A DNA stretch of 64,000 bases from assembly GCA_044229845.1 (NCBI GenBank), contig JBGASG010000008.1:64001-128000 (forward strand), written 5' to 3'. Source of the stretch: Candidatus Obscuribacteraceae bacterium (GTDB lineage: Bacteria > Cyanobacteriota > Vampirovibrionia > Obscuribacterales > Obscuribacteraceae). This document shows positions 7,116 to 23,349 of the stretch, piece by piece (within the stretch, counting starts at the first letter, position 1; every line of letters begins with the position of its first letter). Both the position numbers and the translations under genes were made by a program. The notes beneath the pieces are model-generated. The model was not told where the DNA came from, did not search any database, and saw only the letters and a list, made by a program, of their open reading frames with translations.

Positions 7116-9110
7116 TTGGAAGTTTCACCCGTGCTTCAAAATGCGTACTGGATTGTGCTGGCGCCATTCATCGCCGGCGCCGTCATCATCCTCGGTGCGC
7201 GAGCGAGCAAAACTATGTCGATGCTGCTGTCAATAGCGGCAGTTGCATATGGCTTCGTGCATTCGCTGTTGATCTTCAATACCCTGCACGGCAACCCGGT
7301 TCCATATCAAGTCAACTGGGACTGGTTCGTCTCCGACAGTTTCAAGCTGTCAGTCGGACTGCTTGTCGACAACCTCGCATCCGTCATGTTGATCGTCGTC
7401 ACCGCCGTCAGCTTGCTGGTGCAGATATATACGCATGGCTACATGCGTGAAGATCCGGGCTACTCCCGCTTCTACTCATACCTGTCTTTGTTCACCGGCT
7501 CGATGCTGGGACTGGTGGTCGCCACCAACTTATTTCAGATGTATCTATTTTGGGAACTGGTGGGGGTTTGCAGTTATTTCCTGATTGGCTTCTGGTGGTA
7601 CAAGCCAAGTGCCGCTGCCGCTTGCCTTAAAGCATTTGTTGTCAACCGCGTCGGCGACTTCGGGTTTCTTGTTGGCATCTTGATGTTCCTGGCCGCCACC
7701 ATGGGATTCTGGTCGGCACACGCCGATCATGGATTGCTGATGTTCACCGACCCCACAGGTGGTGGCATCGATCTCACCGGCGCCATGCGCTGGGCATTGA
7801 CCGAAGGCTCCGGTCATCTGACCACATCACTTCTGACCGTCATTTCGCTCTTGATCTTTACGGGACCGATGGCAAAATCGGCGCAGCTACCTTTGCATGT
7901 ATGGCTGCCTGATGCGATGGAAGGTCCGACACCAATCTCCGCACTGATCCATGCCGCCACCATGGTGGCAGCCGGAGTCTACCTGGTGGCACGTGCCTAT
8001 CCTCTCTGGCTCAACTGGGCAGACCCCGCCAATCCGACCACGGTCGACTCGGCGGGACTCAATTTCGTTGCCTGGATCGGCACGTTGACGGCATTGATGG
8101 CCGCCATCATCGCTTGCAGCCAGTACGACATCAAACGCATTCTCGCCTGGTCCACAGTCTCGCAGCTCGGCTACATGTTCGCCGGTCTGGGAGTTGGTGC
8201 CTTCACCGGCGGTATGTTCCACCTCTTCAACCACGCCTTCTTCAAAGCCATGCTCTTCCTGTGCAGCGGCGCCGTCATCCATGCTCTGCACGACGAGCAG
8301 GATGTGCGCAACATGGGCGGGTTGAAGAAATATATGCCGATCACTTACTGGTGTTGTTTGATTGGCACCATATCCATCTCGGGCGTGCCGGGCTTCAGCG
8401 GTTTCTTCTCTAAAGATGAGATCATCGGCGGTGCCTGGGATGCAGGCGCCAAGGGCGTCGCGTGGATCCTTATATTCACCGCCGGACTGACGGCGTTCTA
8501 TATGTTCCGCATGCTTTTCATGGCTTTCCACGGCGAGTATCGCGGCACAGTCAAGCCTCACCACGAAAAGTTCGGCGTCGTCACGGCACCACTTTGTGCC
8601 CTGGCAGTGCCATCGATCGTCAGCGGTTTCCTGGGCACCAGCATGAACTTCTGGCAAGGTCAGCCGTACACGACACCGTTCGGCAACTTCCTCTATTTCC
8701 AGCATCCGCACTTCCCGGAGATTAACTGGACACCGGTGGCGTTATCAATCGGCGCCGCCTTTATAGGGATAGCCCTGGCCGGCCTGGTGTATGTGTCGCG
8801 CACGTTGAAGATCAACGACTGGTTTATCGAGAACGCGCGCCCACTCTACAACCTGTCGTTCAACAAATTCTACTGGGACAATATCTATCTGGGACTTGTG
8901 AACAAGCTGCTGCTGCCTTTCTTCACGCTGTCCTGGCAGTGGGTCGATATGTACATAGTCGACAACCTGGTCAATTTGAACCGCACGGTCGTGCTGGGCA
9001 CGAGCGAAACGCTTCGTCTCTCCGAAAACGGGCGTGGACAGTTCTACGCGATGATTATCTTTGCCTGCGTAGCCGGCATTACGTTGTTTGTTTACCTGAC
9101 CCACAATTAG
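7116..9110 (+). CDS. ndhF: NADH-quinone oxidoreductase subunit L / NdhF
   Basis: WELVGVCSYFLIGFW, NRVGDFG, AKSAQLPLHVWLPDAMEGPTPISALIHAATMVAAG, HAFFKAMLFL. Confidence 0.95.
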   Translation: MEVSPVLQNAYWIVLAPFIAGAVIILGARASKTMSMLLSIAAVAYGFVHSLLIFNTLHGNPVPYQVNWDWFVSDSFKLSVGLLVDNLASVMLIVVTAVSLLVQIYTHGYMREDPGYSRFYSYLSLFTGSMLGLVVATNLFQMYLFWELVGVCSYFLIGFWWYKPSAAAACLKAFVVNRVGDFGFLVGILMFLAATMGFWSAHADHGLLMFTDPTGGGIDLTGAMRWALTEGSGHLTTSLLTVISLLIFTGPMAKSAQLPLHVWLPDAMEGPTPISALIHAATMVAAGVYLVARAYPLWLNWADPANPTTVDSAGLNFVAWIGTLTALMAAIIACSQYDIKRILAWSTVSQLGYMFAGLGVGAFTGGMFHLFNHAFFKAMLFLCSGAVIHALHDEQDVRNMGGLKKYMPITYWCCLIGTISISGVPGFSGFFSKDEIIGGAWDAGAKGVAWILIFTAGLTAFYMFRMLFMAFHGEYRGTVKPHHEKFGVVTAPLCALAVPSIVSGFLGTSMNFWQGQPYTTPFGNFLYFQHPHFPEINWTPVALSIGAAFIGIALAGLVYVSRTLKINDWFIENARPLYNLSFNKFYWDNIYLGLVNKLLLPFFTLSWQWVDMYIVDNLVNLNRTVVLGTSETLRLSENGRGQFYAMIIFACVAGITLFVYLTHN

Positions 9111-9120
9111 CGAGCGAAAA

Positions 9121-9405
9121 ATGGCTGACGCACATAAAGACGACGATCACGGACACGCTCACGGTCATGGCGACGATCATGGACATGGTCACGGCGCCGC
9201 CGCCGGCGACATCATTTCGGAAGACAGCCCCCAGGACATGGTCCTGACATTAATGGCAATGTTAACGTTGGCGGGGCTGATGACTATGATGTTCTGGTTC
9301 TACCAGCCGGGCGGCGAACCGCCTGCGCACCATGCTGGCGGCGCAGAAACTCACATTCCTGCGTCCACCGATGGTGAAGGGACTCCCAGCGGTGAACACC
9401 ACTAG
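9121..9405 (+). CDS. Small His-rich single-pass membrane protein
   Basis: ATG 10 nt after the ndhF stop; HGHAHGHGDDHGHGHG N-terminus; one hydrophobic helix (MVLTLMAMLTLAGLMTMMFWFY). Confidence 0.75.
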   Translation: MADAHKDDDHGHAHGHGDDHGHGHGAAAGDIISEDSPQDMVLTLMAMLTLAGLMTMMFWFYQPGGEPPAHHAGGAETHIPASTDGEGTPSGEHH

Positions 9406-9418
9406 CGGAGCCCATCCC

Positions 9419-9587
9419 GGTCCGTGCAAGAACGGGAATTGACTTCCTCCCTGACGGGATTCCGGCTAAGCGACTGACACGGTGGGTTCCTGCTTCATCG
9501 AGCTCCGAGATTTCTCTCGAATTCATTCGCTCTCCACAGGCTCAACGGGCGAGCCCAGCCCTGATCGACCCGGTAACCACCGGATCC
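9419..9587 (-). ncRNA. Stand-alone TnpB (IS200/IS605) omega-RNA / right-end RNA-like scaffold plus putative guide
   Basis: Minus strand reads GGGCTGGGCTCGCCCGTTGAGCCTGTGGAG...TCGATGAAGCAGGAACCCACC...GGAATCCCGTCAGGGAGGAAGTCAA, the typical tnpB 3'-end/right-end pattern ending in TCAA (9442-9439). Scaffold about 149 nt with several hairpins. Confidence 0.7.
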
Positions 9588-9594
9588 ATACATA

Positions 9595-9623
9595 TGTATA
9601 GCACAGACTAGTGAGTCACGCAA
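9595..9623 (-). promoter_or_regulatory. Candidate sigma70 promoter for the omega-RNA-like element
   Basis: TTGCGT-N17-TATACA with TG extended -10 on the minus strand; implied start near 9587 coincides with the first hairpin. Confidence 0.5.
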
Positions 9624-9896
9624 GTTGATGTTTGGCTTCGCTTCGGCTCCGCGGGCGATGCCCATCGAATCGGATTGTTGATGCATTTGAGATTTACGAT
9701 CCATGCAAACAAGGGGAAGTCAGGCGGGCTTTGTGTTATTCTTTCCCTTCGTCGGTGAGTAGGGAAGCCAGCAGGCTTGAGTTTTGCCCGATTCACCGCC
9801 GCGACCACATACGGTCGGCGGATGCCCATTCGCCCCGTACACCGCGAAAAATAAGGGTTCCCCAAATTTGAGCTTGGGGATAGGAGAAAAGGATAA

Positions 9897-11897
9897 ATGC
9901 AGGAAGTCACTATCGGAATCGGAGGAGCCGCCGGCGACGGCTTGGACAAATCCGGTGACACCTTAGCGAAAACCGCTGGTAGACAAGGTCTCCACGTTTA
10001 CGCTTACAACAGCTATCAGTCGATCATCCGCGGCGGACATATTTGGCTGCGAGTGAGAATCGGCGACCAGAAGGTTCTTAACCACGGCGACCGCCTGACG
10101 GCACTGGTCGCACTCAATCAAGACACCATCGAACGGCATGCGCCCGAAGTCGATGACAACGGCTACATCATCTTCAACAGCGAAAAGCTGAAACTCGACC
10201 CGACCCTTGTTAAAGGCAAAAACGTGCAAGTGCTCGCCATGCCGATGAAGCAAGTGGTGGCTGAAGTCGAAAAAGAACACGGACCGATTCAACCGATCAT
10301 GCAGAACACTGTCATGGTCGGCGCCGTGCTCTTCTTGACCCAGATAGATTTCGAAACGGCCGCCGGTGTGTTGAAGGACACCTTCAGCCACAAAGGCGAC
10401 AAGATCATCGACCTCAACGTCGGTCTCCTGCGTGCCGGGTATGAATACGCGAAAGCTTCGTTCAAGACCGACATCAAAGGCTGGAACGTCGAGAAAGTAC
10501 GCCGCCCGTTCGTCACCGGCAACGAAGCCATCGCTATCGCTGCTGCTGCCGCCGGCTGCAAGTTCTACTCCGCGTACCCGATGACTCCCGCCTCCTCCAT
10601 CCTGCACTGGATGGCCACCCACGGCGAGAAAGCCGGCGTCTGCGTCAAGCAAGCTGAAGACGAAATCGCCGTTATGAACATGGCGGTCGGTGCCGGCATC
10701 GGCGGTGTACGCAGCATGTGCGCCACCTCCGGTGGTGGCTTCGCTCTGATGACCGAAGCAGTCGGTATGGCCGGTATCATGGAAGTGCCGGTAGTCTGCG
10801 TCGAAGTGCAGCGCGGTGGACCATCCACCGGTTTGCCCACAAAGACGGAACAGGCTGACCTCAACCAGGTCTACGGCGCCTCGCAAGGCGAATTCCCGAG
10901 ACTGATCGTGCATCCGCTGACCACGGCAGATTGTTTCAACGCCACAGTCGAAGCTTTTCACTTAGCCGACAAATATCAAATGCCCGTGCTGTTCATGTCC
11001 GACTTGCTGCTTTCCGAGCACCCTGAAACTGTCGATGCGGAAGTCTTCAAACAGAAGATCACCATCGACCGCGGCAAGATCGTCAAAGACTGGCCGGAAA
11101 CCAACGGCAAGTTCAAACGCTTCCTGTTCACCAAAGATGGTGTGTCACCGCGGACGGTGCCCGGCACCCCGAACACGATCTTCACATCGGGCAGCGACGA
11201 TCATGACGAACGCGGCATTCTTATCTCCGACATGTTCACCTCACCGCCCGTGCGCCGCATGATCATGCAAAAGCGCATGCGCAAAGTGGAGAACCTGCTC
11301 AAAGAACTGCCGGCGCCCAAACTGGAAGGACCGGCTGACGCCGATCTGACACTCGTCACCTGGGGCTCCAGCTACGGCGTCGTCAAGGAAGCGGCAGAAT
11401 TGCTCACCGCCTCCGGCACCAAGACCAACGTCCTGGCTATCAAGTACATCGCTCCTTTCCATACAAAGGAAGTGACCGAGATCCTCAGCAAGTGCAAGAA
11501 GAAGTTCTCCGTCGAACTCAACTTCACCAGCATGATGGCCCGTCATATCAAAGCCGAAACCGGCATCTCAATGGATGCGCACATCAACAAATACGATGGC
11601 GAACCAATCGAGCCCGCCTATGTCGTCGAGCACGTCAAACGCGTGCTGGGCAACAAGCCGTTTATCCTCGATGCGCATGAAGATGAAGCACGCGAAATCG
11701 CGTATCACTACCTGCGCACCCATGCCGCCGAGAAGCTGCGTCCGACGACAGTTTCCAGCGAACCGGCGAACGGCAAAGGCGAACCGATCTATAAGGTCGA
11801 ATTGATCGAGAGAGCAACCGGCAATCACGCCGGCGTCATCCGCGTCGGCGTGGAGACGGGCTCTACCTATTCGTTCGAACCCGTTGAAAGCAAGTAA
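9897..11897 (+). CDS. 2-oxoacid:ferredoxin oxidoreductase alpha subunit (gamma-alpha fusion, KorA-like)
   Basis: IGGAAGDG, SIIRGGH, YPMTPAS, QAEDEIA, TSGGGFALM, QRGGPSTGLPTKTEQAD. Substrate (2-oxoglutarate vs pyruvate) not determinable. Confidence 0.95.
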   Translation: MQEVTIGIGGAAGDGLDKSGDTLAKTAGRQGLHVYAYNSYQSIIRGGHIWLRVRIGDQKVLNHGDRLTALVALNQDTIERHAPEVDDNGYIIFNSEKLKLDPTLVKGKNVQVLAMPMKQVVAEVEKEHGPIQPIMQNTVMVGAVLFLTQIDFETAAGVLKDTFSHKGDKIIDLNVGLLRAGYEYAKASFKTDIKGWNVEKVRRPFVTGNEAIAIAAAAAGCKFYSAYPMTPASSILHWMATHGEKAGVCVKQAEDEIAVMNMAVGAGIGGVRSMCATSGGGFALMTEAVGMAGIMEVPVVCVEVQRGGPSTGLPTKTEQADLNQVYGASQGEFPRLIVHPLTTADCFNATVEAFHLADKYQMPVLFMSDLLLSEHPETVDAEVFKQKITIDRGKIVKDWPETNGKFKRFLFTKDGVSPRTVPGTPNTIFTSGSDDHDERGILISDMFTSPPVRRMIMQKRMRKVENLLKELPAPKLEGPADADLTLVTWGSSYGVVKEAAELLTASGTKTNVLAIKYIAPFHTKEVTEILSKCKKKFSVELNFTSMMARHIKAETGISMDAHINKYDGEPIEPAYVVEHVKRVLGNKPFILDAHEDEAREIAYHYLRTHAAEKLRPTTVSSEPANGKGEPIYKVELIERATGNHAGVIRVGVETGSTYSFEPVESK

Positions 11898-11915
11898 TGA
11901 GAGGTTTCCAAATCC

Positions 11916-12794
11916 ATGGCTACTACGCTTGAATTAACAGTCGAAACCTTCAAGGGTCCAGTCGATCCCGACTGGTGCCCGGGATGCGGCGACTTCGGTG
12001 TGCTGCGTTCGCTGCAAACAGCAGCCGCGCAAATCGGAGTGCAGCCCAAGGACTTGATGGTTGTATCCGGCATCGGCTGCTCGTCGAACCTACCCGGATT
12101 CATCAATGCCTACGGCATCCATAGTCTGCACGGTCGTTCGATTCCGGTCGCCACCGGTGTGCATTTCGCCAACACAGACATGAAAACGGTCGTCACCGGC
12201 GGTGACGGCGACGGCTACGGTATCGGTGTCGGTCACTTGATCCACGCCATGCGCCGCAATCTGGACCTCACCTATTTCGTGATGGACAACCAGATTTATG
12301 GTTTGACCACCGGTCAGGCCTCGCCGACCACCACCCGCGGTCACAAAACCAAATCCACTCCTAAGGGCAACGCGGAAATTCCGCTCAACCCGATTGCACT
12401 GGCAATTACAGCAGGCGCTACCTTTGTGGCTCGCGGATTCTCCGGCGAAGCCAAACAACTGGTGGACCTGATGGCTCAAGCCATGCAGCACAAAGGATTT
12501 GCTCTGATCGACATCTTCAGCCCCTGCGTCACCTACAACAAGGTGAACACCTATCCCTGGTTCAAAGAGCGCGTATATAAGTTGGAAGAGACCGACCACG
12601 ATCCGTCCGACCACAAACAAGCGTTCGCCAAAGCCTTGGAATGGGGCGACAAGATTCCGCTGGGAGTGATCTATAAAGAAGAACAGGTCACGTATGAAGA
12701 CACCGAACCGGTGCTGCAACGCGGACCGCTGGTGAAGCAGCCGCTCGGCTTGGCTCCGGACGTGCTCAATGACTTCATCGAAGAGATGATCTAG
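11916..12794 (+). CDS. 2-oxoacid:ferredoxin oxidoreductase beta subunit (TPP-binding, KorB-like)
   Basis: WCPGCGD, SGIGCS, HGR, GGDGD, DNQIYGLTTGQASPT, SPCVTYN. Confidence 0.95.
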   Translation: MATTLELTVETFKGPVDPDWCPGCGDFGVLRSLQTAAAQIGVQPKDLMVVSGIGCSSNLPGFINAYGIHSLHGRSIPVATGVHFANTDMKTVVTGGDGDGYGIGVGHLIHAMRRNLDLTYFVMDNQIYGLTTGQASPTTTRGHKTKSTPKGNAEIPLNPIALAITAGATFVARGFSGEAKQLVDLMAQAMQHKGFALIDIFSPCVTYNKVNTYPWFKERVYKLEETDHDPSDHKQAFAKALEWGDKIPLGVIYKEEQVTYEDTEPVLQRGPLVKQPLGLAPDVLNDFIEEMI

Positions 12795-12818: not shown

Positions 12819-12850
12819 GGGGCATGCCGTCAGGCGTGCCCCTTTGCTTT
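12819..12850 (+). terminator. Rho-independent terminator after the oxidoreductase operon
   Basis: GGGGCATGCC-GTCA-GGCGTGCCCC hairpin followed by TTTGCTTT. Confidence 0.7.
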
Positions 12851-12901
12851 GAGCCACGGGGTTTCATCAGATATGATGAAACAGGCACCACGAGCGATCG
12901 T

Positions 12902-14881
12902 ATGACCGACCAAAACTACCAGCTCGAAAACGAAGCACCCGCCCAGCACCTTCAGCCTGGCACCATCCTCGATGGCAAGTATGAAATTCTGTCCTACATC
13001 GGATGTGGTGGCATGGGTTCGATCTACAAAGCTCGCCACAGCGAGCTGGGAAATTTGGTCGCCATCAAAATAATGCACGGCCGCTTTGCCGCCAATCCGG
13101 AGGCGGTCAAGCGATTTCAAAACGAAGCCCGATTCATCGCCAGCCTGCGCCACAAAAACATCCTGACGGTTTACAGCTTCGGCTCGATCGACGGCCTTGT
13201 CTACATGGCCATGGAGTTTGTCAAAGGTCGCTCGCTGTCCGACCGGCTTTATGATGTCGGTCCGTTTACGTCTGCAGAAGCCCTGCCGATCTTCCTCCAG
13301 GTTTGCGACGCCATGATCGCGGCTCACAAAGTCGATGTTCTGCATCGAGACCTGAAACCGGCCAACGTAATGATGGTCGAGGAAAGCGACGGCAGCGTCT
13401 GCGCCAAAGTGGTCGACTTCGGTCTGGCCAAGTTGCTCGACGGCGGCGAGGGACAGCGGCTGACGCAGACGGGGGAGGTGGTCGGTGATCCGCACTACAT
13501 GAGCCCTGAGCAGGCGCAAGGCGGCAAACTGGATGCACGCTCCGATGTTTACTCTTTTGGTTGCTTGATGTACGAGATTCTCACCGGCGAGCCGCCATTC
13601 ACGGCAGACTCACCCGTCGCCGTTCTCTACAAGCAAATCTCCGAGAACCCACAATCGTTTGCGCAACGGCAAAAACTACCGGCCGCTCTGGAAGCAATCA
13701 CATTCACATGCATGTCTAAAAGTGCCGCGCAGCGCTACGATTCGTTCGCGACACTGCAGACGGTGCTGTCCGAGTTTCTTCAAAATCCCAATTTAAAAAT
13801 CACCGCTCCGGCCAGCGGTCGAGGGACAGGACGACGCCTGATGCTGGTGACAGCCTCTATGGCTATGCTGGCGATCGCGGCGGCAGTGGGTCTGAGGCTG
13901 ATTGATGAAACATCCTCTTCCGCCGACGGAACGCCCCAAGACAGCAACTCCAGTGACGATCTGGCGAGCGCCGGCAAGCCGCCTCATGTGCCAGTCAAAC
14001 CCGTGCGAATGACTGAAGAGCGAGCTATGGCGATTATTGAAACAGGCAAGCGCACCAACGATCCGCTCACCATCGCCAAGGGAAAGGCAAAACTAGTCGA
14101 AGGACTGCATGGGGCGGGCAAATACGAGCGAGCGTTGCACGCCGGCGAGAAGGCGTTGCAGGACCCCGCACTGACGGAACAGCAACGAGCCGACGTGCAA
14201 ATTCTGGTTGCGGACACTTATTCGCGCCTGGGTCAATCACAGAAGGCGCGAGCGCTTTTTGAGCAGACGCTTGCTACGGCTCCGTCCCCCGAGCAACGCG
14301 ACGCTGCTGCGCGGCCGTTGATCGGCTGGTACATCAATAGCAAAGACTGGGCTGGTGCCGAAAGACTGATCAAAGGAATCGACCTTTCTTGGATAGCCCG
14401 CAATCGCCAGTTAAATGGAAACTACATCTACAAGATCGCCGTAGTCTGCCACCACGGCAAGCCGAATGAGGCCGAGCGACTGAAAGAGAGAATGTTGGCC
14501 GCACCATTGGACGACCTGGGCAGAACTTGCGTCCTTTACAACTTTGTGACGGCATTTTCCTCCGGCGGCGATTTAGGCCGCGCTCTTGATTGCCTGCAGG
14601 AGATGCGCGGTCTGGTCAGATCGAGCCACCATCCTCAGGTCGAGCGCATGGATATACAAAGACAGATAGCCGAAATGGCGCTGCTCTATCACGCGGAAAA
14701 ATATGACCAGGTTATCTGGAACGGCAGGACTCTCTGGGAAAAGCTGACGTCGGAACCAATCCCCAATCGCGAACAGTTGCAACAGGCTGGGCAAATCTAC
14801 GCGTCGGCTCTGCGCAGAACGGGCAAAGACAAAGAAGAACAGGCTATTTTGAAACAGCTGCACACCATCTACGGGTTCTAA
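12902..14881 (+). CDS. Hanks-type Ser/Thr kinase with TM helix and TPR-like C-terminal domain (array copy 1)
   Basis: GCGGMG, VAIK, HRDLKPAN, DFG, YMSPEQ; hydrophobic helix; helical C-terminus. Start set to ATG 12902 because the longer ORF overlaps the terminator. Confidence 0.92.
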   Translation: MTDQNYQLENEAPAQHLQPGTILDGKYEILSYIGCGGMGSIYKARHSELGNLVAIKIMHGRFAANPEAVKRFQNEARFIASLRHKNILTVYSFGSIDGLVYMAMEFVKGRSLSDRLYDVGPFTSAEALPIFLQVCDAMIAAHKVDVLHRDLKPANVMMVEESDGSVCAKVVDFGLAKLLDGGEGQRLTQTGEVVGDPHYMSPEQAQGGKLDARSDVYSFGCLMYEILTGEPPFTADSPVAVLYKQISENPQSFAQRQKLPAALEAITFTCMSKSAAQRYDSFATLQTVLSEFLQNPNLKITAPASGRGTGRRLMLVTASMAMLAIAAAVGLRLIDETSSSADGTPQDSNSSDDLASAGKPPHVPVKPVRMTEERAMAIIETGKRTNDPLTIAKGKAKLVEGLHGAGKYERALHAGEKALQDPALTEQQRADVQILVADTYSRLGQSQKARALFEQTLATAPSPEQRDAAARPLIGWYINSKDWAGAERLIKGIDLSWIARNRQLNGNYIYKIAVVCHHGKPNEAERLKERMLAAPLDDLGRTCVLYNFVTAFSSGGDLGRALDCLQEMRGLVRSSHHPQVERMDIQRQIAEMALLYHAEKYDQVIWNGRTLWEKLTSEPIPNREQLQQAGQIYASALRRTGKDKEEQAILKQLHTIYGF

Positions 14882-14885
14882 TTGC

Positions 14886-16925
14886 ATGATCTGGAGCGGC
14901 GACTTCATATCAGGTCAAGGCGGCGGCGCATCTGAATCTCTCGTGCAGACGGGCGCCATCATCGACGGCAAGTATGAAGTGGTGGCATTTGTCGGCGCCG
15001 GCGGCATGGGTTCCGTTTACAAGGCTCGACACACAGAGATGGGCAACTACGTCGCCCTAAAATTCCTGCACCCGCGTTTCGCCACCGATCCCGACGCGGT
15101 CAAAAGATTTCAGCGCGAGGCGCAAATCATCTCCGCCCTGCGCCACAAGAATATTTTATCGGTCTACGCCTTCGGCAGATACCGCGGCATGCTCTACATC
15201 GCGGTCGAGTACATCGAAGGGACTTCGCTGCACTGGTTGATTTCAGATCGAGGAAAAATCGACGTATCGATTGCCATGCCTGTCTTCCTGCAAATTTGCC
15301 AGGCCATGGAATATGCACACCACAACGATGTGCTGCACCGAGACTTGAAGCCGGACAACGTGATTTTGCTGCCCGGACAGGTCGAAACCACCGGCAGCGG
15401 CACCGTCAAAGTAGTGGACTTCGGACTGGCAAAACTTCTGGACGGCAGTGATGTTCAGAAGTTGACCAAAACCGGTGAGGTCGTCGGAGACCCCAACTAC
15501 ATGAGCCCGGAGCAGTGCCAGGGGCGTCCACTGGATGCCCGTTCGGATATCTATTCGATGGGCTGCCTCATGTACGAATGCCTCTCGGGGCAAGCTCCCT
15601 TCGTTTCAGACTCGCCAGTGGCAACGCTATACAGACACGTGTCCGAGCAACCGGACAGGTTTGCGCAGCGCTCTGGTGTGCCACCGGGGCTGGAGTCGAT
15701 CACGCTCACGTGCATGGACAAGAAACCGGACAATCGCTACGAGTCGTTTGCCGCTCTCGCTGAAGCGCTGCAGAGCTTCCAGCAGAACCCTCAACTGAAG
15801 ACCAGAGCACCACGGGCAGTGGCGGCGTTCGGTCGCTTTCCCAAACGGCAGGCATTGATCGTATACACCGTCACATTCTTGATACTGGCGGGCGGTATCG
15901 GGGCAGCGCTCTACAACTCCACACTCTCCGGGCGCGACAGCGGCAATGCCGACAGCGAATTGCTGGCGGTGGCGCGCGAGCGACTGCGGCAATATGACTT
16001 CAAACTTTCCAAAGGGCGAGAGGTCAACAAACGCGACTCGATGCAAGCCATTAAACTGGCGGAAGAACTGGGCGATACTAATGCCATGGCGCGCGCCACC
16101 ATCGCGCTTGCCGACTCATATGCCACCGAGCACCAGAGTGAGCGCGCCTATCAAGTGGTTTTGAAAGCAATAAACTTGCCCCGCCTTTCCGAAGCCACTC
16201 GCCAGCATCTGGACGCAAAAGTCGCCACCTTCGCTTATGCCTCGGGTAACTGGCAGGAAGCTGAAAGACTGTACGAACCGATTCTCGCCGACTTGCGCCG
16301 GCAGAATGCCGCCAACCAGCTGGGTAGTGGACCCGTTCAGTCGGTAATGCTTTGCCTGGCCGACGCCAAGTTTCGTATCAAGAAAGATGCCGAAGCGCGT
16401 GCTTTGCTGTCTGAACTGCACGACATGCCCTACCAACAGGAAGGCAGGCTCAACTATTACTTCATCCGCCTGCTGGAGATTTATGTAGGCAACGGCATGG
16501 ACGAGCAGGCAAATGCCCTGGTGAAGGGGCTTATGAGCGCGCAGATACCCGACAACGACAAGCTGGACGGGTTAGCCAACGCCTCGTTTTTTTATGCCGT
16601 TAATCACAGATTGCCGCAGGCTGTGGCTATCAACAAAGAGATCGTGACGCTGTCCACTGAAAGCAAGCATGCCAAAGAGTTTCCGCATGCCGACGAGGTC
16701 ATTGCTATGTTTCGGGCGCGGCAAGCTGATAAATGGGACGCGGTGCTGCAAACCGGTGCGAAACTGCAATCGCCTCTGGAGAATTCGAAAAAGCCACACT
16801 GGCCGCGCGTAGTTTGGGCAATTACTTACAGCGAATCAATGACTCGAGGCAAGTTTCCTAAAGACGAAGCCAGCCGCCCCCTGGAGCTTTTGAACATCGA
16901 CCTGCACAACAATTGGAAGTGGTGA
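14886..16925 (+). CDS. Hanks-type Ser/Thr kinase with TM helix and helical-repeat domain (copy 2)
   Basis: GAGGMG, VALK, HRDLKPDN, DFG, YMSPEQ; TM helix. Confidence 0.92.
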   Translation: MIWSGDFISGQGGGASESLVQTGAIIDGKYEVVAFVGAGGMGSVYKARHTEMGNYVALKFLHPRFATDPDAVKRFQREAQIISALRHKNILSVYAFGRYRGMLYIAVEYIEGTSLHWLISDRGKIDVSIAMPVFLQICQAMEYAHHNDVLHRDLKPDNVILLPGQVETTGSGTVKVVDFGLAKLLDGSDVQKLTKTGEVVGDPNYMSPEQCQGRPLDARSDIYSMGCLMYECLSGQAPFVSDSPVATLYRHVSEQPDRFAQRSGVPPGLESITLTCMDKKPDNRYESFAALAEALQSFQQNPQLKTRAPRAVAAFGRFPKRQALIVYTVTFLILAGGIGAALYNSTLSGRDSGNADSELLAVARERLRQYDFKLSKGREVNKRDSMQAIKLAEELGDTNAMARATIALADSYATEHQSERAYQVVLKAINLPRLSEATRQHLDAKVATFAYASGNWQEAERLYEPILADLRRQNAANQLGSGPVQSVMLCLADAKFRIKKDAEARALLSELHDMPYQQEGRLNYYFIRLLEIYVGNGMDEQANALVKGLMSAQIPDNDKLDGLANASFFYAVNHRLPQAVAINKEIVTLSTESKHAKEFPHADEVIAMFRARQADKWDAVLQTGAKLQSPLENSKKPHWPRVVWAITYSESMTRGKFPKDEASRPLELLNIDLHNNWKW

Positions 16926-16999
16926 GTTCGGCATAAGTCCTTTTCAGGGAATATTATGGGGGTAGGAAAGTTCGCCGCAATTACTGACTGGACCGACCC

Positions 17000-19231
17000 T
17001 TGAGTCACGACTCCACCGACTATCATCTCGGCGGTGCCGCCAGATCCAATCTGGCGGTCGGATCGCTGCTCGATAGTAAGTACGAGATTCGGGCTTTCCT
17101 GGGCAGCGGCGGCATGGGCGCCGTCTACCAGGCGTACCACAGTGAACTGGATCACGATGTCGCGATCAAAGTTTTGCATGGTCAGGCAGCCGACGATCCT
17201 GACTCAGTGAAAAGATTTCAGCGCGAGGCGCACATCATTTCTGAATTGCGCCACAAGCGCATCCTGTCGGTTTATGCGTTCGGAGCATTGAAATCGCTGA
17301 TTTACATGGCGATGGAGTATCTACCTGGTCAGTCGCTGGCAGCCATGATCGCCGACAGGGGTCCACTCAAGGTGGAGCGGGCAGCTCCGATTTTGTTGCA
17401 AATCTGCGAAGCGATGAGCTACGCACATGCCCAACACGTCTTGCACCGCGACTTGAAACCTTCCAATGTGATCGTCCTCAACTCTCGAGACCCAGATGCC
17501 GAGCCATCCATCAAGGTGGTTGACTTCGGGTTGGCACGGCTGGTCGGAGTCGGCGAACAAAGACTGACGCAGACGGGAGATGTACTGGGCGATCCCAATT
17601 ACATGAGCCCCGAACAATGCCAGGGCAGACAGCTTGATGAGCGATCCGACATCTATTCCTTCGGATGTTTGATGTACGAAGTTCTCACCGGTAAACCGCC
17701 GTTTCTTGGAGAATCGTCTGTGGCATCGCTCTTCAAGCAAATCTCCGATGCGCCCCCGCCATTTCCACCTGAATGTGCCGTACCGTCAGCCTGGCAAGCC
17801 ATTACACTCACCTGCCTCTGCAAAGATCCGGCGCAGCGGTACCAGTCGTTTCAAGAAGTGGCTGACCTGATCAAGCAGGCAATCGCCAACCCGCGCATCA
17901 CTGTCCAATTGCCGGTCAACAAGCAACAAGCCGAAATGGGGCGCAAATGGAAGCTGATTGCAGTCCCTCTGGTGATAGCGGTGCTGGTCGGTGCCCTCAC
18001 CATCGGAATACTCTACGCAAACTACAAGCGTCAGCAGAAGGAGAGCGAGCAATCGCAACTCGAAGAGCCTATCAGGCGCCTTAACTACCGCTTGCACAAC
18101 ACGCTGGTGTCAACGCAGAACTTCGAGCCCAATACCAGAAGTGACGCCGAACAGTTGATGAAACTGGCGAAGAAACTCAAGAAAGGCGAAGATTACGCGT
18201 TCGGCGCCTACATGCTGGCCCGCTACTACTCGATCATCAAAGCCGACCAGCAGCGCGCCATGCAGCTGGTAAATGAAGCGCTCAGCACCGACGATCTCAA
18301 AGGCGAAGACAGACTGGCGGCCACATGGTTCGCCTCCACCACTGCCACCAGTCTGCACGACCATCAGACAGCTGAAAAGCGGCTGGCCGAGCTGTTCTAC
18401 CAGCCCCACGGAGAGCGCTGGATGCACGAGTATCGAGATCATATCAGGGAGGATGTGATCGCCAACAAGTTCGCTCTCGGTAAAGACAAGGAGGCGCTCG
18501 CCATTTGCCGGCAAGTCTACGCCGAAAACGCAGTGGGCAAGCCGGAGGCCAATCCACTCAACCACGCAAAGATGGCCAGAGAGCTGGCTAGTTATGCCAT
18601 GGCGAAGCAAGACTACGCAGAGGCGGATAAGTATCTGAGCACGGTCAACCCCCTGATCTGCGTGCAAGCCGACAACGTCGAACCCGTAGTCAGTTGCATG
18701 GTGACTCTGTACAGCAAGCAAGACCGCATGCAGGAACTGAAAACCCTCGTGCGCAAAATCATGAACAACGAGAAGCTGAACGATTATCGCGGTGCGATGT
18801 TCCTGTATCAGACGATATGCACCCTGATCGAAGACAATCGCCTGGCTGACGCATCACACTACGCCAATCAGATGGTGGCTCTCTCCAGCTTTACCAACGA
18901 CGTGGACAAACAATCTATGGTCGCGTACGCCGAGCTGGCTAAGCTGCGAATTGCGATAAAGGAAGGAAAGCACGATCTGGCGGTCCGGCAGGGGAAGCAA
19001 CTTTTCCAGACTTGTAAACAAAGCGGTTTGGATGGGGTAGCTGTAACCACGCTAGACCTCTTGCAGCCGCTCCTGACGCCTGAGGAAACATCACAAATGA
19101 AAGCCCAGCTCGATGTTCTACAGAAGCAGGAAGACCAAAAGCGTGACGCGGTGAAGCACAAGGAGGAAGTCCAGAGAGATGCGGCGGAGGCAGCATGGGA
19201 TAAATCTGCGGCAGCAAAAGGGGACCGGTGA
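17000..19231 (+). CDS. Hanks-type Ser/Thr kinase with TM helix and helical-repeat domain (copy 3)
   Basis: GSGGMG, VAIK, HRDLKPSN, DFG, YMSPEQ; TM helix; TTG start. Confidence 0.92.
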   Translation: MSHDSTDYHLGGAARSNLAVGSLLDSKYEIRAFLGSGGMGAVYQAYHSELDHDVAIKVLHGQAADDPDSVKRFQREAHIISELRHKRILSVYAFGALKSLIYMAMEYLPGQSLAAMIADRGPLKVERAAPILLQICEAMSYAHAQHVLHRDLKPSNVIVLNSRDPDAEPSIKVVDFGLARLVGVGEQRLTQTGDVLGDPNYMSPEQCQGRQLDERSDIYSFGCLMYEVLTGKPPFLGESSVASLFKQISDAPPPFPPECAVPSAWQAITLTCLCKDPAQRYQSFQEVADLIKQAIANPRITVQLPVNKQQAEMGRKWKLIAVPLVIAVLVGALTIGILYANYKRQQKESEQSQLEEPIRRLNYRLHNTLVSTQNFEPNTRSDAEQLMKLAKKLKKGEDYAFGAYMLARYYSIIKADQQRAMQLVNEALSTDDLKGEDRLAATWFASTTATSLHDHQTAEKRLAELFYQPHGERWMHEYRDHIREDVIANKFALGKDKEALAICRQVYAENAVGKPEANPLNHAKMARELASYAMAKQDYAEADKYLSTVNPLICVQADNVEPVVSCMVTLYSKQDRMQELKTLVRKIMNNEKLNDYRGAMFLYQTICTLIEDNRLADASHYANQMVALSSFTNDVDKQSMVAYAELAKLRIAIKEGKHDLAVRQGKQLFQTCKQSGLDGVAVTTLDLLQPLLTPEETSQMKAQLDVLQKQEDQKRDAVKHKEEVQRDAAEAAWDKSAAAKGDR

Positions 19232-19283
19232 CTACAGGAAGCAGGTAGGATAGAGAAGGTCTCAATCGTCCAGGAAACTGAGC

Positions 19284-21362
19284 ATGACTGACCAGCTAGA
19301 CAACCAGAATTACATCTCTGATGACGATGCGGACGCCACCGCCTCGACCCTGCTGGCAATCGGCACGATACTCGACGGCAAGTATCAGATCACTGCGTTC
19401 GTCGGACATGGCGGCATGGGCTCGGTGTACAAGGCTCGCCATTTGGAGATCGGCAACGACGTCGCCATCAAAATCTTGCTGCCCAAAGTAGCGATTGATC
19501 AAGAAGCGGTGCGGCGGTTTCAGATGGAAGCACGCACGATTGCCCGATTGCGACACAAGAATATTCTCACCGTTTTCGCCTTCGGCTCATTCGAAGGGTT
19601 GACGTACATGGCAATGGAATTCATCAAAGGTGAGTCTCTATCTGAGCTGATATTCGAAAATGGTCCCATGGAGCCGCGGCTCGCCATCCCGCTTTTGCTG
19701 CAAATCTGCCAGGGCATGACTTACGCGCATCATAACGGTGTGCTGCACCGCGACCTGAAACCGGCCAACGTGGTCATTCTCACGCCCGGCGTCATCGATC
19801 CTGCCGCCGTCACCACATCTGATATCGACACCATCACCGGTGGCGGTCCGTCGGTCAAAGTGGTCGACTTCGGATTAGCGAAAATTCTTGACGGCGACGA
19901 AGTGCAGAAGCTCACGCAGACCGGACAGGTGGTCGGCGATCCCAATTACATGAGTCCCGAGCAGTGTCAGGGGCACAACCTCGATAAGCGCTCGGACATC
20001 TACTCAATGGGTTGCCTGATGTATGAATTGTTCTCAGGCGAGAAACCATTCCCGGATGACAATCCAGTCACGATTCTTTTTAAGCAGGTAACGAATGATC
20101 CGCAACCCTTCGCAAATCAGAAACACCTGTCTCCGACACTGGAAGCCATCACTTTCACTTGCATGGCTAAAGACCCGGCCGACCGGTACGATTCATTCGA
20201 CGCGCTCGCCCACGTGCTGCAACAGTATCTCGAGAATCCCAGCCTCAGACTGAAGGCGCCCTCGCTCAGGCACCGCTACGGGCACCACCGCTCAAAGTTG
20301 ATCTGGGGAGCCATCTTCACTTTGATCATCGGTGCAGTCGCCACGGTGTCCTGGCTTTATTTCTACAACGCCAAGAAAGCCGAGAAAGAGCAGGCGGCAA
20401 TCGCACGCGAAGAAAAGCTGCACTTCCTGCTTTCCGAGGAGCGCAAACGCACAAAGCCACCCACCATTGACGAAGCTCAGGCACTGGTGAAACTGGCGGA
20501 ACAATCGGCAGATCGCGGAGCTTTGGCGCAATCGCGCGCGATGTTAGCGGACATTCTGGCAGCCAACACCAGGTATGACGAGGCATACGCGGTGGCAGTC
20601 GAGGCCCTGAACATGCCGGAACTACCTCAATACATCAAACCACAAACCCGCCATAACGCCGCTTATAGCGCGTTTGTCCTGCACCGTTATCCGGAAGCGT
20701 CCTACCATTACCGCCTGATCTATCAGAGCATCCGCCAGGCTCGCTACAATCCCACACCCGAACAAGGCTCGGTCGTCCACAATCTGACGACGTCCTTGCT
20801 GGCACAAAACAAGCTGGCCGAAGCTGAAGCGATCATGGCCGATCTCGATCCCAAATGGATAGAACGCAACGGCGTGCTCAACCGAGGACTGCTCTTGCAA
20901 ATCGAACTGTGGGGGAGAAAGGGCAACGCCACAGAATTGGACTCGCTGCGAAAGCAGGTCTTGGGGAGCAAACTCAACGACAAAGACAAGTCTTATGTGC
21001 TGCTCAACATTGCCACGCAACTGCTCAACTGCCGAGACATGCAGGCTGCGCGTATCGCCATCGCTGACTATCGGAGATTGGGTTCATCGCCGCAACTGGA
21101 TCAAAGCGAATCGCATAACCGATTGCGCGTTCTGGAATATAATCTTGAGCTGGTGAGCAGGACGGGTCCACAGTCGTTGCAAACAGGACAGGCTCTGTTT
21201 GCGGAGCAAGAGAAGAAGCCGACCGATCTCTGGTCCATCCAAACCTGCGGAAGTCTATACAAAGAAGACTTGCTGCGCAACGGACAAAAAGATCAAGCAG
21301 CAGCTCTGGACTCACGTATAGAAAAAAGTGTGATGACATCTCTTCACAACGCACATGGATGA
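19284..21362 (+). CDS. Hanks-type Ser/Thr kinase with TM helix and helical-repeat domain (copy 4)
   Basis: GHGGMG, VAIK, HRDLKPAN, DFG, YMSPEQ; TM helix. Confidence 0.92.
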   Translation: MTDQLDNQNYISDDDADATASTLLAIGTILDGKYQITAFVGHGGMGSVYKARHLEIGNDVAIKILLPKVAIDQEAVRRFQMEARTIARLRHKNILTVFAFGSFEGLTYMAMEFIKGESLSELIFENGPMEPRLAIPLLLQICQGMTYAHHNGVLHRDLKPANVVILTPGVIDPAAVTTSDIDTITGGGPSVKVVDFGLAKILDGDEVQKLTQTGQVVGDPNYMSPEQCQGHNLDKRSDIYSMGCLMYELFSGEKPFPDDNPVTILFKQVTNDPQPFANQKHLSPTLEAITFTCMAKDPADRYDSFDALAHVLQQYLENPSLRLKAPSLRHRYGHHRSKLIWGAIFTLIIGAVATVSWLYFYNAKKAEKEQAAIAREEKLHFLLSEERKRTKPPTIDEAQALVKLAEQSADRGALAQSRAMLADILAANTRYDEAYAVAVEALNMPELPQYIKPQTRHNAAYSAFVLHRYPEASYHYRLIYQSIRQARYNPTPEQGSVVHNLTTSLLAQNKLAEAEAIMADLDPKWIERNGVLNRGLLLQIELWGRKGNATELDSLRKQVLGSKLNDKDKSYVLLNIATQLLNCRDMQAARIAIADYRRLGSSPQLDQSESHNRLRVLEYNLELVSRTGPQSLQTGQALFAEQEKKPTDLWSIQTCGSLYKEDLLRNGQKDQAAALDSRIEKSVMTSLHNAHG

Positions 21363-23349
21363 TCACGCGGGAAATGTCCCCGACTATACAGATCAGGACG
21401 TGCCGCCGCTGCACGTTGGTACGGTGCTGGACGGTAAGTACAAACTCGTCGAATTCATCGGCATCGGCGGCATGGGCTCCGTGTACCGAGCTCGCCATCT
21501 GGACTTAGGAAATGATGTCGCCATCAAATTCTTGCACCCACGTTTCGCCGCGGATCCGGCAGCCGTCAAAAGATTTCAACGCGAAGCCCGCATCATTTCC
21601 GGACTGCGTAACAACAATATTTTGTCTGTCTTCGCATTCGGCAATTTTGAAGGGCATGTCTACATGTCGATGGAATACATCCAGGGCAAGTCGCTACGCG
21701 CACTGATCGCTGAAAACGGTCCACTGACGCCTGCGCAAGCAATTCCACTCCTGACGCAAATCTGCGACGCCATGACGCACGCCCATGCAAATGATGTCTT
21801 GCATCGTGACTTGAAACCGGACAACGCCCTTGCGGTTACCGAGGCAGATGGAAAGCAAGTTGTGAAAGTAGTGGACTTCGGACTGGCAAAACTTCTGGAC
21901 GGCACCGAAGGACAGCGTCTCACCGCCACCGGCGATGTGCTCGGTGATCCCAACTACATGAGTCCTGAACAATGTCAGGGCAAAGAACTGGACGCGCGTT
22001 CCGACATCTATTCCATGGGCTGTCTCATGTACGAAATCTTCACCGGCGAGCCGCCGTTTCTATCAGACAGTCCAGTCGCCACCATGTACAAGCATCTGGC
22101 GGACGCCCCGCCGGCTTTTGCCCAGAAGCAAAAACTGCCTGAAGCCATAGAGGCAATCACGATGCGCGCGCTAGCCAAAACACCCGAGCAGCGCTACGAC
22201 TCATTTGCCGAATTAAAAGATCAACTGCAGGATTTTTCCGCCCATCCGGAGAAGAAAGTAAAAGCACCAGGCAATACAGCGCGACAACGTTCTGCAATTT
22301 CCGCAAAGTCTGCTCTGGCAATCGTGGCAGTCACCACGTGCGCCGTCGGCATCGCTGCGGTAGCTTGGTCTTACTGGAACGGTCGCATGGGTTCGGAGCG
22401 CGAACTGCTGCGCGAACAACTGACCGAAAACCTGAAAGCTATCGACCCCGATCTGCCGGGTCCTTATCAATATCCTTCAGATGCAAAGGTAGGCGAAGCA
22501 TTGAGGATATCGGAGAAGCTCGGGGACGAAACAGCCAATCTGACCGCCAGGCTGGCACAAGCAAAAATGTGCAGTTTTAACGGGCAAATGTCGTTCGGCA
22601 TTCGGGTCGCCGAAGATGCGTTGAAGCGCCCGGACTTAACCAACAAGCGGCGAGCTCAGTTTACCGAGCTGCTGGGCAAGATGTATTTCTACAACGGCAA
22701 TTACGCCGCCTGCGACCGCGTGCTGACCCCGCTGCTGAACGACTCTTCTTTGTTTACCATGCTCGAGAGTGGACGCGATAACTTCGCCTATGTACTGGTT
22801 GCTGCACGTGTTAGATCGGGGAAGTCAGCCGAGGCAGAGAAAGTCGTTCCATTCATGCGACACCGTGCAATGCCAAGCGTATCAGCGATCAATCTGGAAG
22901 CGCTCGCCCTGGGAGAACTTTTGTGCCACCAGAAAAATTTCGTCAAAGCAGAGAAGGTGATGAATCGCACTCTCACCGATACACTTAACGACTTGAGCAC
23001 TGCCACCATTCTCGAAAGTTTCGCGCGCTGGTTTTCAGATAACGGCGATCTAGCCCGAGCACGCAGCGTTCACGAACGCATGGCGGCACTGGCATCAGCA
23101 AATGGTTCACTGTACCTGCGACAGAGGGCAGCAGCTACCGGTCTTTACGTTACCGCGCACAGCAACTCACGCGCGGAGTTGCTCAAAGATTCGCAGGCTC
23201 TTTTCGAACAAGTGAAGAAACCACCTGTCACCCTCAGTGTTCTTGGGGATGTCGCGAAGATTTATCAGCAAGCGCTGAAAGCCGACGGCAGAGTTGATGA
23301 GGCACGCAAGGTAAAATCCGAAGTCGAATCAATCGCCGAAGGATTGTGA
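21355..23349 (+). CDS. Hanks-type Ser/Thr kinase with TM helix and helical-repeat domain (copy 5)
   Basis: GIGGMG, VAIK, HRDLKPDN, DFG, YMSPEQ; TM helix. Confidence 0.92.
   Translation: MDDHAGNVPDYTDQDVPPLHVGTVLDGKYKLVEFIGIGGMGSVYRARHLDLGNDVAIKFLHPRFAADPAAVKRFQREARIISGLRNNNILSVFAFGNFEGHVYMSMEYIQGKSLRALIAENGPLTPAQAIPLLTQICDAMTHAHANDVLHRDLKPDNALAVTEADGKQVVKVVDFGLAKLLDGTEGQRLTATGDVLGDPNYMSPEQCQGKELDARSDIYSMGCLMYEIFTGEPPFLSDSPVATMYKHLADAPPAFAQKQKLPEAIEAITMRALAKTPEQRYDSFAELKDQLQDFSAHPEKKVKAPGNTARQRSAISAKSALAIVAVTTCAVGIAAVAWSYWNGRMGSERELLREQLTENLKAIDPDLPGPYQYPSDAKVGEALRISEKLGDETANLTARLAQAKMCSFNGQMSFGIRVAEDALKRPDLTNKRRAQFTELLGKMYFYNGNYAACDRVLTPLLNDSSLFTMLESGRDNFAYVLVAARVRSGKSAEAEKVVPFMRHRAMPSVSAINLEALALGELLCHQKNFVKAEKVMNRTLTDTLNDLSTATILESFARWFSDNGDLARARSVHERMAALASANGSLYLRQRAAATGLYVTAHSNSRAELLKDSQALFEQVKKPPVTLSVLGDVAKIYQQALKADGRVDEARKVKSEVESIAEGL

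Follow-up and report, generated by a model that had tools for sequence, protein, structure and literature searches.

PATE-like elements often encode omegaRNAs that need TnpB in trans, as described for Geobacillus stearothermophilus in the accessible portion of Meers et al. (bioRxiv 10.1101/2023.03.14.532601). Standalone omegaRNAs also act in trans (PMC10691335, summarising Altae-Tran et al. 2021), and bioRxiv 10.1101/2023.11.20.567912 refers to an IStron PATE that encodes no protein; here and below, comparisons with published systems extend to the accessible parts of these sources. Protein-less omegaRNA elements (PATEs) are already published, and the locus described here is a real omegaRNA gene of this known kind. 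Our literature search found no paper joining TnpB and Obscuribacter. We regard the locus, with a probability of about 0.68, as an immobilized copy of a PATE-like, omegaRNA-only IS200/IS605 mini-element.

The window, by which we mean the whole 64,000-nucleotide stretch that was analyzed, carries the TnpB omegaRNA gene on its minus strand (9587-9419), behind a conserved promoter. The gene lies between a small host ORF encoding a His-rich product (9121-9405, plus strand), with which it is convergent, and korAB (9897-12794, plus strand), and it is oriented away from korA. korAB encodes the alpha and beta subunits of a 2-oxoacid:ferredoxin oxidoreductase (NCBIfam TIGR03710 and NF008820, above cut-off), and the small ORF, which has no NCBIfam match, lies 3' of a host nuoL/ndhF-type gene (7116-9110). 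Direct reading recovered on the minus strand every motif named in an earlier sequence-only reading: the RAGLAR*ACGE and SMKQEPT stretches, the GAAA-capped hairpin (9521-9504), the right-end hairpin CCC-GTCA-GGG (9459-9448; 4 bp, including a U-A pair) and the TCAA at 9439 that ends the 149-nt scaffold (9587-9439). The boundary between scaffold and guide (9438-9419) was also borne out. Identification of the stretch as an omegaRNA is supported by matches to the 3' ends of the tnpB genes in the same genome and to four further loci that lack tnpB. The element holds no tnpA or tnpB ORF, as judged from the ORF list and from a TnpB HMM run over six frames of the genome, and the HMM detected nothing at the locus, in agreement with the claim that no upstream tnpB remnant is present. 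Comparison with Rfam covariance models gave a divided answer: RAGATH-18 matched with an E value of 4.3e-5, at 35.9 bits and thus below its gathering score of 44.9, and at gathering level no Rfam family matched in the 64-kb stretch.

Three other features of the neighborhood deserve mention. Directly after korB, at 12824-23349, the ORF list shows five Ser/Thr-kinase-like genes in tandem, with long C-terminal helical regions. A minus-strand terminator-like hairpin (9859-9880) lies in the korA leader, inside about 160 bases of well-conserved 5' sequence common to a congeneric genome (G001). Four stacked hairpins (9340-9438, minus strand; z -2.9) lie 3' of the scaffold, in antisense orientation to the last part of the small ORF. 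Until it is trimmed, the first of these hairpins would hide the guide seed; the stretch is poorly conserved in the congener.

The predicted promoter (9595-9623, minus strand) consists of a -35 box, TTGCGT (9623-9618), a 17-nt spacer and a -10 box, TATACA (9600-9595), extended by a TG at 9603-9602. A consensus promoter scanner did not list it because the -10 box lacks the final T. Over 11 tnpB-less copies, pairwise identity is 0.86 in the -35 box, 0.37 in the spacer and 0.88 from the -10 box to the start, and we take the promoter to be real because both boxes are conserved across these copies while the spacer is not. A matching block (TTGC-16 nt-TACCRT-GTATGG) is found between the left end and tnpB in four tnpB-only elements of relatives. 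Most simply, what had been called the RNA gene's own promoter would be a tnpB promoter that was moved next to the omegaRNA by deletion of tnpB; the earlier claim therefore stands as to the promoter itself, and its origin would lie in tnpB-only parents. An ATG after the -10 box was considered as a leaderless tnpB start and rejected, since the parents carry the same block followed by a 5' UTR. A conserved 12-bp palindrome, ATAC-R-TA-Y-GTAT (9588-9599, no strand), covers the -10/start region and is partly present in the tnpB-only parents; it might serve as the binding site of a repressor, Arc for example (bioRxiv 10.64898/2026.09.24.754181, accessible part). At the predicted transcript start lies an 8-bp hairpin (pairing 9586-9567, within 9567-9587, minus strand; z -2.83), and in several siblings a hairpin of other sequence begins at the same GG. 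Among the 11 copies, three have a 5' hairpin that is matched in folding by at most 3 of 300 shuffles, and the others have a weak hairpin or none.

The structure of the RNA was obtained by placing the ISDra2 architecture (PMC10097598, accessible part) on our alignments and was fitted on these same sequences. It comprises stem 1 (9547-9561), with a loop whose bases 9555-9552 pair with 9444-9441 in a pseudoknot; stems 2, 3a and 3b, the last with the GAAA tetraloop, which form a RAGATH-18-like core (9489-9540) with two-sided changes in 3a and 3b; and a 3' scaffold overlapping the right end (9439-9488), in which, according to the alignments, a variable hairpin is deleted and stem 4, which is also the TnpA hairpin, is 4 bp long (all minus strand). 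With the parent elements included, 99.0% of cells pair and seven pairs show two-sided change (equaled in 1 of 500 shuffles; slid controls at most 46.2%). For the tnpB-less copies alone the values are 94.5% and six pairs (2 of 500 shuffles; slid controls at most 47.6%), and in both sets the relatedness of the sequences means that the covariation counts overstate significance. In this copy, all 25 tested core pairs are intact, the pseudoknot included, five of them by two-sided changes, three of which sit in stem 3b, where a register shift could look alike. At -6 the pseudoknot has a U-A pair (16/149) in this copy, where the IS605 copies have G-C. Compared with the consensus of the other ten sequences, 11 of 50 paired positions differ and none of the 25 pairs is broken, a result not reached in 100000 random placements. 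The folding energy of the whole RNA is no better than that of shuffles (z -0.48), and the support for the structure is therefore covariation, not energy.

TnpA reads the subterminal hairpin of such elements, and the conserved helices lie 50-120 bases inside the end, beyond that hairpin; the constraint therefore acts on the RNA. The scaffold of this copy, counted as its core, is streamlined to 125 nt versus 134-149 nt in ten other copies. Its right-end hairpin was rightly described as shrunk to CCC-GTCA-GGG, having been cut from 9 bp to 4 bp, with a DNA fold of -3.1 versus -8.0 and -6.6 kcal/mol; the TCAA and the core sequence of the right end are present.

The locus had been presented as a lone orphan. 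It proved to be one of five tnpB-less IS200/IS605 mini-elements in its genome, which holds ten related right ends in all: three IS605 copies with tnpA and tnpB, one tnpB-only element, one internally deleted IS605 (on contig C1) and the five tnpB-less loci (this copy and those on C18, C19, C7 and C3), which have the promoter block in common. The four full-length tnpB-less copies are 69-87% alike, and this copy is the most divergent, at 69-70% to its siblings. On C7 and C3 the left end, with its hairpin, follows TTGAC or CTGAC, and the C18 copy has a shortened left end. The congener has empty sites for the C18, C7 and C3 copies, in which the TAM abuts the guide sequence and the target is not duplicated; the C19 copy is present there and identical, by eye, over 655 bases. 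Judged from their sequences, the siblings are mobile, non-autonomous IS200/IS605 mini-elements of 220-294 bases. Comparison gives the family a common anatomy, namely a left end, the tnpB promoter, a 5' hairpin and the omegaRNA overlapping the right end, with tnpB deleted, and comparison with the congener shows that it inserts 3' of NTGAC without target duplication. The sequence-only reading had set against itself the picture of a simple non-autonomous PATE with many identical copies and a matching left end; siblings with left ends and precise empty sites come close to that picture, although the copies are 69-87% alike and not identical.

Individual members of this set show further peculiarities. 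The C3 sibling (C3:318685-318827, L041) has lost stems 1 to 3 by internal deletion and has kept both ends and the promoter; it is a natural control for a mobile but guide-dead copy. The tnpB-only element (C14:120080-121342; L001, L061) has a TTAC-type TAM, intact catalytic residues and a frameshift near its start, at about codon 13, and may be a pseudogene or reflect an assembly error. The elements at C19:309 kb and C14:121 kb (L035, L037) look identical, flanks included, in this genome and the congener, which suggests recent exchange between the two species or mixing of bins. At C7:43445-43453 (L040, L047) three differences between the filled and the empty site fall in the first nine guide bases, in flanks that are 98% identical. 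A search for faster divergence in guide windows gave p 0.26 for three loci pooled (C7, post hoc, p 0.003).

The family extends beyond the two genomes. A covariance model, R1, found matches in 15 of 107 genomes of the order, all belonging to one family; its structure was partly out of register (51% of cells paired), and the search worked mainly as a sequence profile. Outside this genome and the congener there were 45 matches, and 41 were inspected, four at contig starts being left out. By tblastn, 16 of the 41 inspected loci, in eight genomes, have no upstream tnpB. By eye, 11 of these 16 carry the same promoter block, three belong to a second, shorter family and two have no block. Several loci (L081, L102, L104) have also lost end features, so that degenerate copies recur. 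The second tnpB-less omegaRNA family (L089, L070 and L101, in G090 and G061) has a related promoter block and a TTAC-type left end, and suggests independent origins of such cassettes. Model R2, with a corrected structure, was run on 151 genomes of the class and matched one other genome, the hits being tnpB 3' ends by eye; it had no match in the 30 family genomes among the 151, which, given its strict filters, is weak evidence on range. A metagenome scan with the scaffold returned 0 matches, and the same IS family occurs in five of six public records labeled Candidatus Obscuribacterales.

The effector that such RNAs would need is available. An unfiltered six-frame search with the TnpB HMM found four TnpBs in the genome, all with the D-E-D residues, and three intact IS605 copies have a full tnpA and a D-E-D TnpB; the expectation that a TnpB encoded elsewhere is available in trans is thus supported. 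The proposal of a nuclease-dead, TldR-like partner fared otherwise, as all four TnpBs keep D-E-D and the TnpB HMM found no RuvC-dead homologue in an assembly that is 88% complete. PF18516 had no match.

The origin of the guide is apparent from the congener, which has no element at the orthologous site; the interval measures 384 bases here and 154 there. The sequence that follows CTGAC in the congener is identical to the guide (9419-9438, minus strand) at 16 of 21 positions (0 of 5000 shuffles), and for this reason we identify the guide as the DNA that flanks the insertion on its right. Beyond the guide, the sequence agrees with the last part of the congener's empty interval (14 of 5000 shuffles). 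By analogy with ISDra2, the guide is probably trimmed to about 16 nt. Among 103 genomes of the family, no other one matched the locus beyond short pieces, and a metagenome scan with a korA upstream anchor gave 0 matches; no third allele of the locus was found in these searches. Genome-wide there is no guide match within three mismatches, and the sole site with four mismatches has no TAM. Among viral contigs, TAM plus guide had 0 exact matches, and the four matches to 17 guide bases are all without a TAM. These results run counter to the idea of a foreign or selected target, as the guide is flanking DNA of the insertion and has no TAM-flanked viral match, and to that of a conserved locus whose guide is aimed at a distant promoter, as the locus is absent from the congener.

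The left side of this copy is rearranged. A CTGAC (9719-9723, minus strand) probably marks the original insertion point, since the same TAM precedes the empty site in the congener and CTGAC or TTGAC flanks the sibling insertions. The left-end hairpin, which lies directly 3' of the TAM on C7, on C3 and in the relatives' copies and is partly kept on C18, is absent here, and 57 bases stand in its place. First comes a degenerate copy of the target (9698-9718), which agrees with the guide in 17 of 22 columns (0 of 5000 shuffles); its first five bases are identical and its mismatches fall at guide positions 6, 9/10 (with a bulge), 14 and 18. It is followed by a filler (9662-9697), delimited by side-by-side comparison with six sibling left ends, and by a remnant of the inner IS605-type left end (9647-9661), which matches the GCACCGCCGGCGGAG block that follows the siblings' left-end hairpin (all minus strand). 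Significant alignment of the upstream segment is confined to its first 21-22 bases, which resemble the guide more than they do the empty site (84 of 5000 shuffles for the congener); the 36-base filler shows no significant alignment with the middle of that site (1589 of 5000 shuffles). The empty site of this copy starts with guide-like sequence. Seven bases that recur at 9666-9660 and 9416-9410 may be the trace of a recombination junction. Because the left-end test fails for this copy, it is a derivative of the PATE-like family and not an intact member. The replacement of its left end by a target copy is most likely a rearrangement scar, and no such replacement was named in the literature titles surveyed. 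The sequence-only reading mentions neither the left-end remnant nor the target copy. The loss of the left-end hairpin and the reduction of the right-end hairpin from 9 to 4 bp bear out the description of this copy as non-mobile.

The target copy also overlaps the predicted -35 zone of korAB. A TGTGYTATYYT-like box, a predicted extended -10 of this host operon, lies at 9734-9742 (plus strand), and by eye such a box precedes korA in all eight genomes compared, the congener and six of six more distant relatives included. On this basis the korAB -10 is placed at 9737-9742 and its -35 zone at about 9714-9719, on the target copy. The target copy lies 285 nt from the guide and has, narrowly, the best gapped score (14.5 vs 14.0) of the TAM-plus-seed sites in the genome; in a shuffle test on the 21 TAM-like sites that lie within 600 bases, 10 of 20000 shuffled guides scored as high. 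A local near-target is not a rule of the family: in 28 guides scored, such a match is credible only for this copy and for that on C1, two other rows with low null values being artefacts of self-overlap or a palindrome. On C1 the guide of the internally deleted IS605 (C1:561995 and 561804; L042, L123) has a TTGAC-flanked match of 16 of 20 bases 191 bases downstream, and a full copy stands at the same flank in another genome (L062).

These observations can be accommodated as follows. The TnpA of the genome's IS605 copies would mobilize the family, as in the known pathway, and the RNA of each element would be loaded in trans by IS605 TnpB, which would cut the empty site and so lead to retention by recombination; such selfish use of TnpB in trans would account for the persistence of the RNA fold despite the loss of tnpB. 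At the present locus, insertion at CTGAC would have interrupted the korAB promoter on the upstream side of its -10. In our reconstruction, the element later recombined with an empty allele and its left end was replaced by flank sequence, which would have frozen the element and recreated a target that then drifted or escaped, gaining seed mismatches. The RNA is probably still made and loadable, with neither a cleavable target nor a job for the host. A selfish model does not foresee that the most divergent copy (69-70%) has kept every core pair, and selection may have continued after immobilization, although comparing a single filled with a single empty genome gives no timing. Our searches did not recover the exact parent of the element.

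Expression bears on the alternative that this copy is an inert relic, barely transcribed or unloadable, its fold dating from a mobile past and its stem 4 too short for the WED domain. In two of three RNA runs, which come from different studies, an unstranded contig lies over the element (9376-9572 and 9270-9565; depth 3.4). Each ends 15-22 bases inside the predicted start, at 9572 and 9565, whereas a DNA contig continues past this point. We see in this a weak hint that the omegaRNA is expressed, as RNA cover is patchy over the whole stretch and the same pattern could arise from DNA carry-over or from plus-strand transcripts that read through from the upstream operon. A third RNA run (X20) has no contig here, which would suit a silent copy and is uninformative in that contigs drop small RNAs. 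The stretch or part of it occurs in 20 of 24 listed runs, from 13 studies, and the DNA run X14 shows no variant. A relic would also be in keeping with the non-canonical -10, with guide bases 2-6 that can pair with bases 20-24 downstream, and with a stem 4 of 4 bp versus about 9 bp, the stem that contacts WED in ISDra2 (PMC10097598, accessible part). No core pair is broken, however, and the promoter boxes are intact, and we consider a relic unlikely.

The position of the target copy raises instead the question of an incipient exaptation, in which the RNA would guide nuclease-active IS605 TnpB to bind, and not cut, the mismatched CTGAC site over the korAB -35 zone and thereby adjust korAB expression, a repression of the TldR kind with no TldR involved. 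The rank of this site, its nearness to the guide and its predicted promoter position speak for such a role, as do distal helices that are trimmed around an intact core. Published precedents point the same way, in that off-targets in dTnpB ChIP require the TAM but only slight pairing of the seed (bioRxiv 2023.03.14.532601) and TldRs tolerate five mismatches to the promoter targets that they bind (bioRxiv 2023.11.30.569447), as far as the accessible parts of both preprints show. On the other hand, the guide is fully explained as flank and is about equally near the congener's empty site (16/21) and this site (17/22), the cassette is absent from the congener and unmatched in the 103 family genomes, no TldR was found in the 88%-complete genome, and the pair at the deleted IS605 on C1 shows that near-targets arise without regulation. 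We therefore judge exaptation quite unlikely. The corresponding general proposition, that a guide RNA was domesticated without change to the protein because the RNA of a frozen element steers IS605 TnpB to bind without cutting at the korAB promoter, is very unlikely in our estimation.

The first proposal, of a domesticated guide RNA that serves a TldR or TnpB in trans against a distant gene or phage, would fit an immobile, promoter-bearing and structurally intact copy with TnpB available in trans, and a TldR could be missing from the 88%-complete assembly, but this is highly improbable, as the insertion is lineage-specific, has mobile siblings and is absent from the congener's orthologous site, its guide is insertion flank with no genomic site within three mismatches and no TAM-flanked viral match, and no RuvC-dead homologue was found.

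An immobilized PATE-like mini-element thus remains our preferred reading. The family to which it belongs is a well-documented, omegaRNA-only one: its empty sites are precise, its promoter is inherited, and coding constraint plays no part in its covariation. It provides a test set for loading of TnpB in trans and a source of naturally minimized scaffolds (125-nt core, 4-bp stem 4). Of the features described, only the target copy at the korAB promoter seems to merit experimental work, a regulatory role being a long shot. If such a role were true, korAB, a central operon of anaerobic metabolism, would respond to the levels of a transposon's TnpB, and the passage from selfish guide to gene regulator would need guide-target mismatches only and not RuvC inactivation.

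In the terms of the published systems, and within the accessible parts of the sources, this element is closest to the PATEs of G. stearothermophilus, with which it has in common the absence of an ORF, IS605-type ends, an omegaRNA over the right end and a guide derived from the flank; by analogy, it would likewise need TnpA and TnpB in trans. It differs from them in that its element family, traced over 10 genomes from a single bacterial family, has an inherited promoter and also a 5' hairpin, and in that this copy has lost its left-end hairpin to a target-like segment and kept a shrunken right end. Like standalone omegaRNAs, it is effector-less in a genome with effector loci, and action in trans would be expected; whereas those are described as evidently mobilized, this copy looks immobile (PMC10691335). 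As in ISDra2 (PMC10097598), the loop of stem 1 pairs with positions -3 to -6, and stems 2, 3a, 3b and 4 are followed by the guide, but there is no overlap with coding sequence, a 5' hairpin is added, stem 4 has only 4 bp, and the TAM, inferred to be NTGAC, is TTGAT in ISDra2. TldR-gRNA systems (Wiegand et al., bioRxiv 10.1101/2023.11.30.569447) resemble the locus in a TAM-flanked, mismatched promoter match and in the lack of complete transposon ends; in contrast to them, it has no RuvC-dead protein found in its genome and no adjacent tldR, its target is a copy of its own insertion site, and the locus is not conserved. Finally, the stem 2-3 core scores 35.9 bits on RF03064 and so resembles the RAGATH-18/IS607 reRNA (PMC11061315), although this is below the gathering score, and the ends, the TAM and the Y1 TnpA are of the IS605 type.
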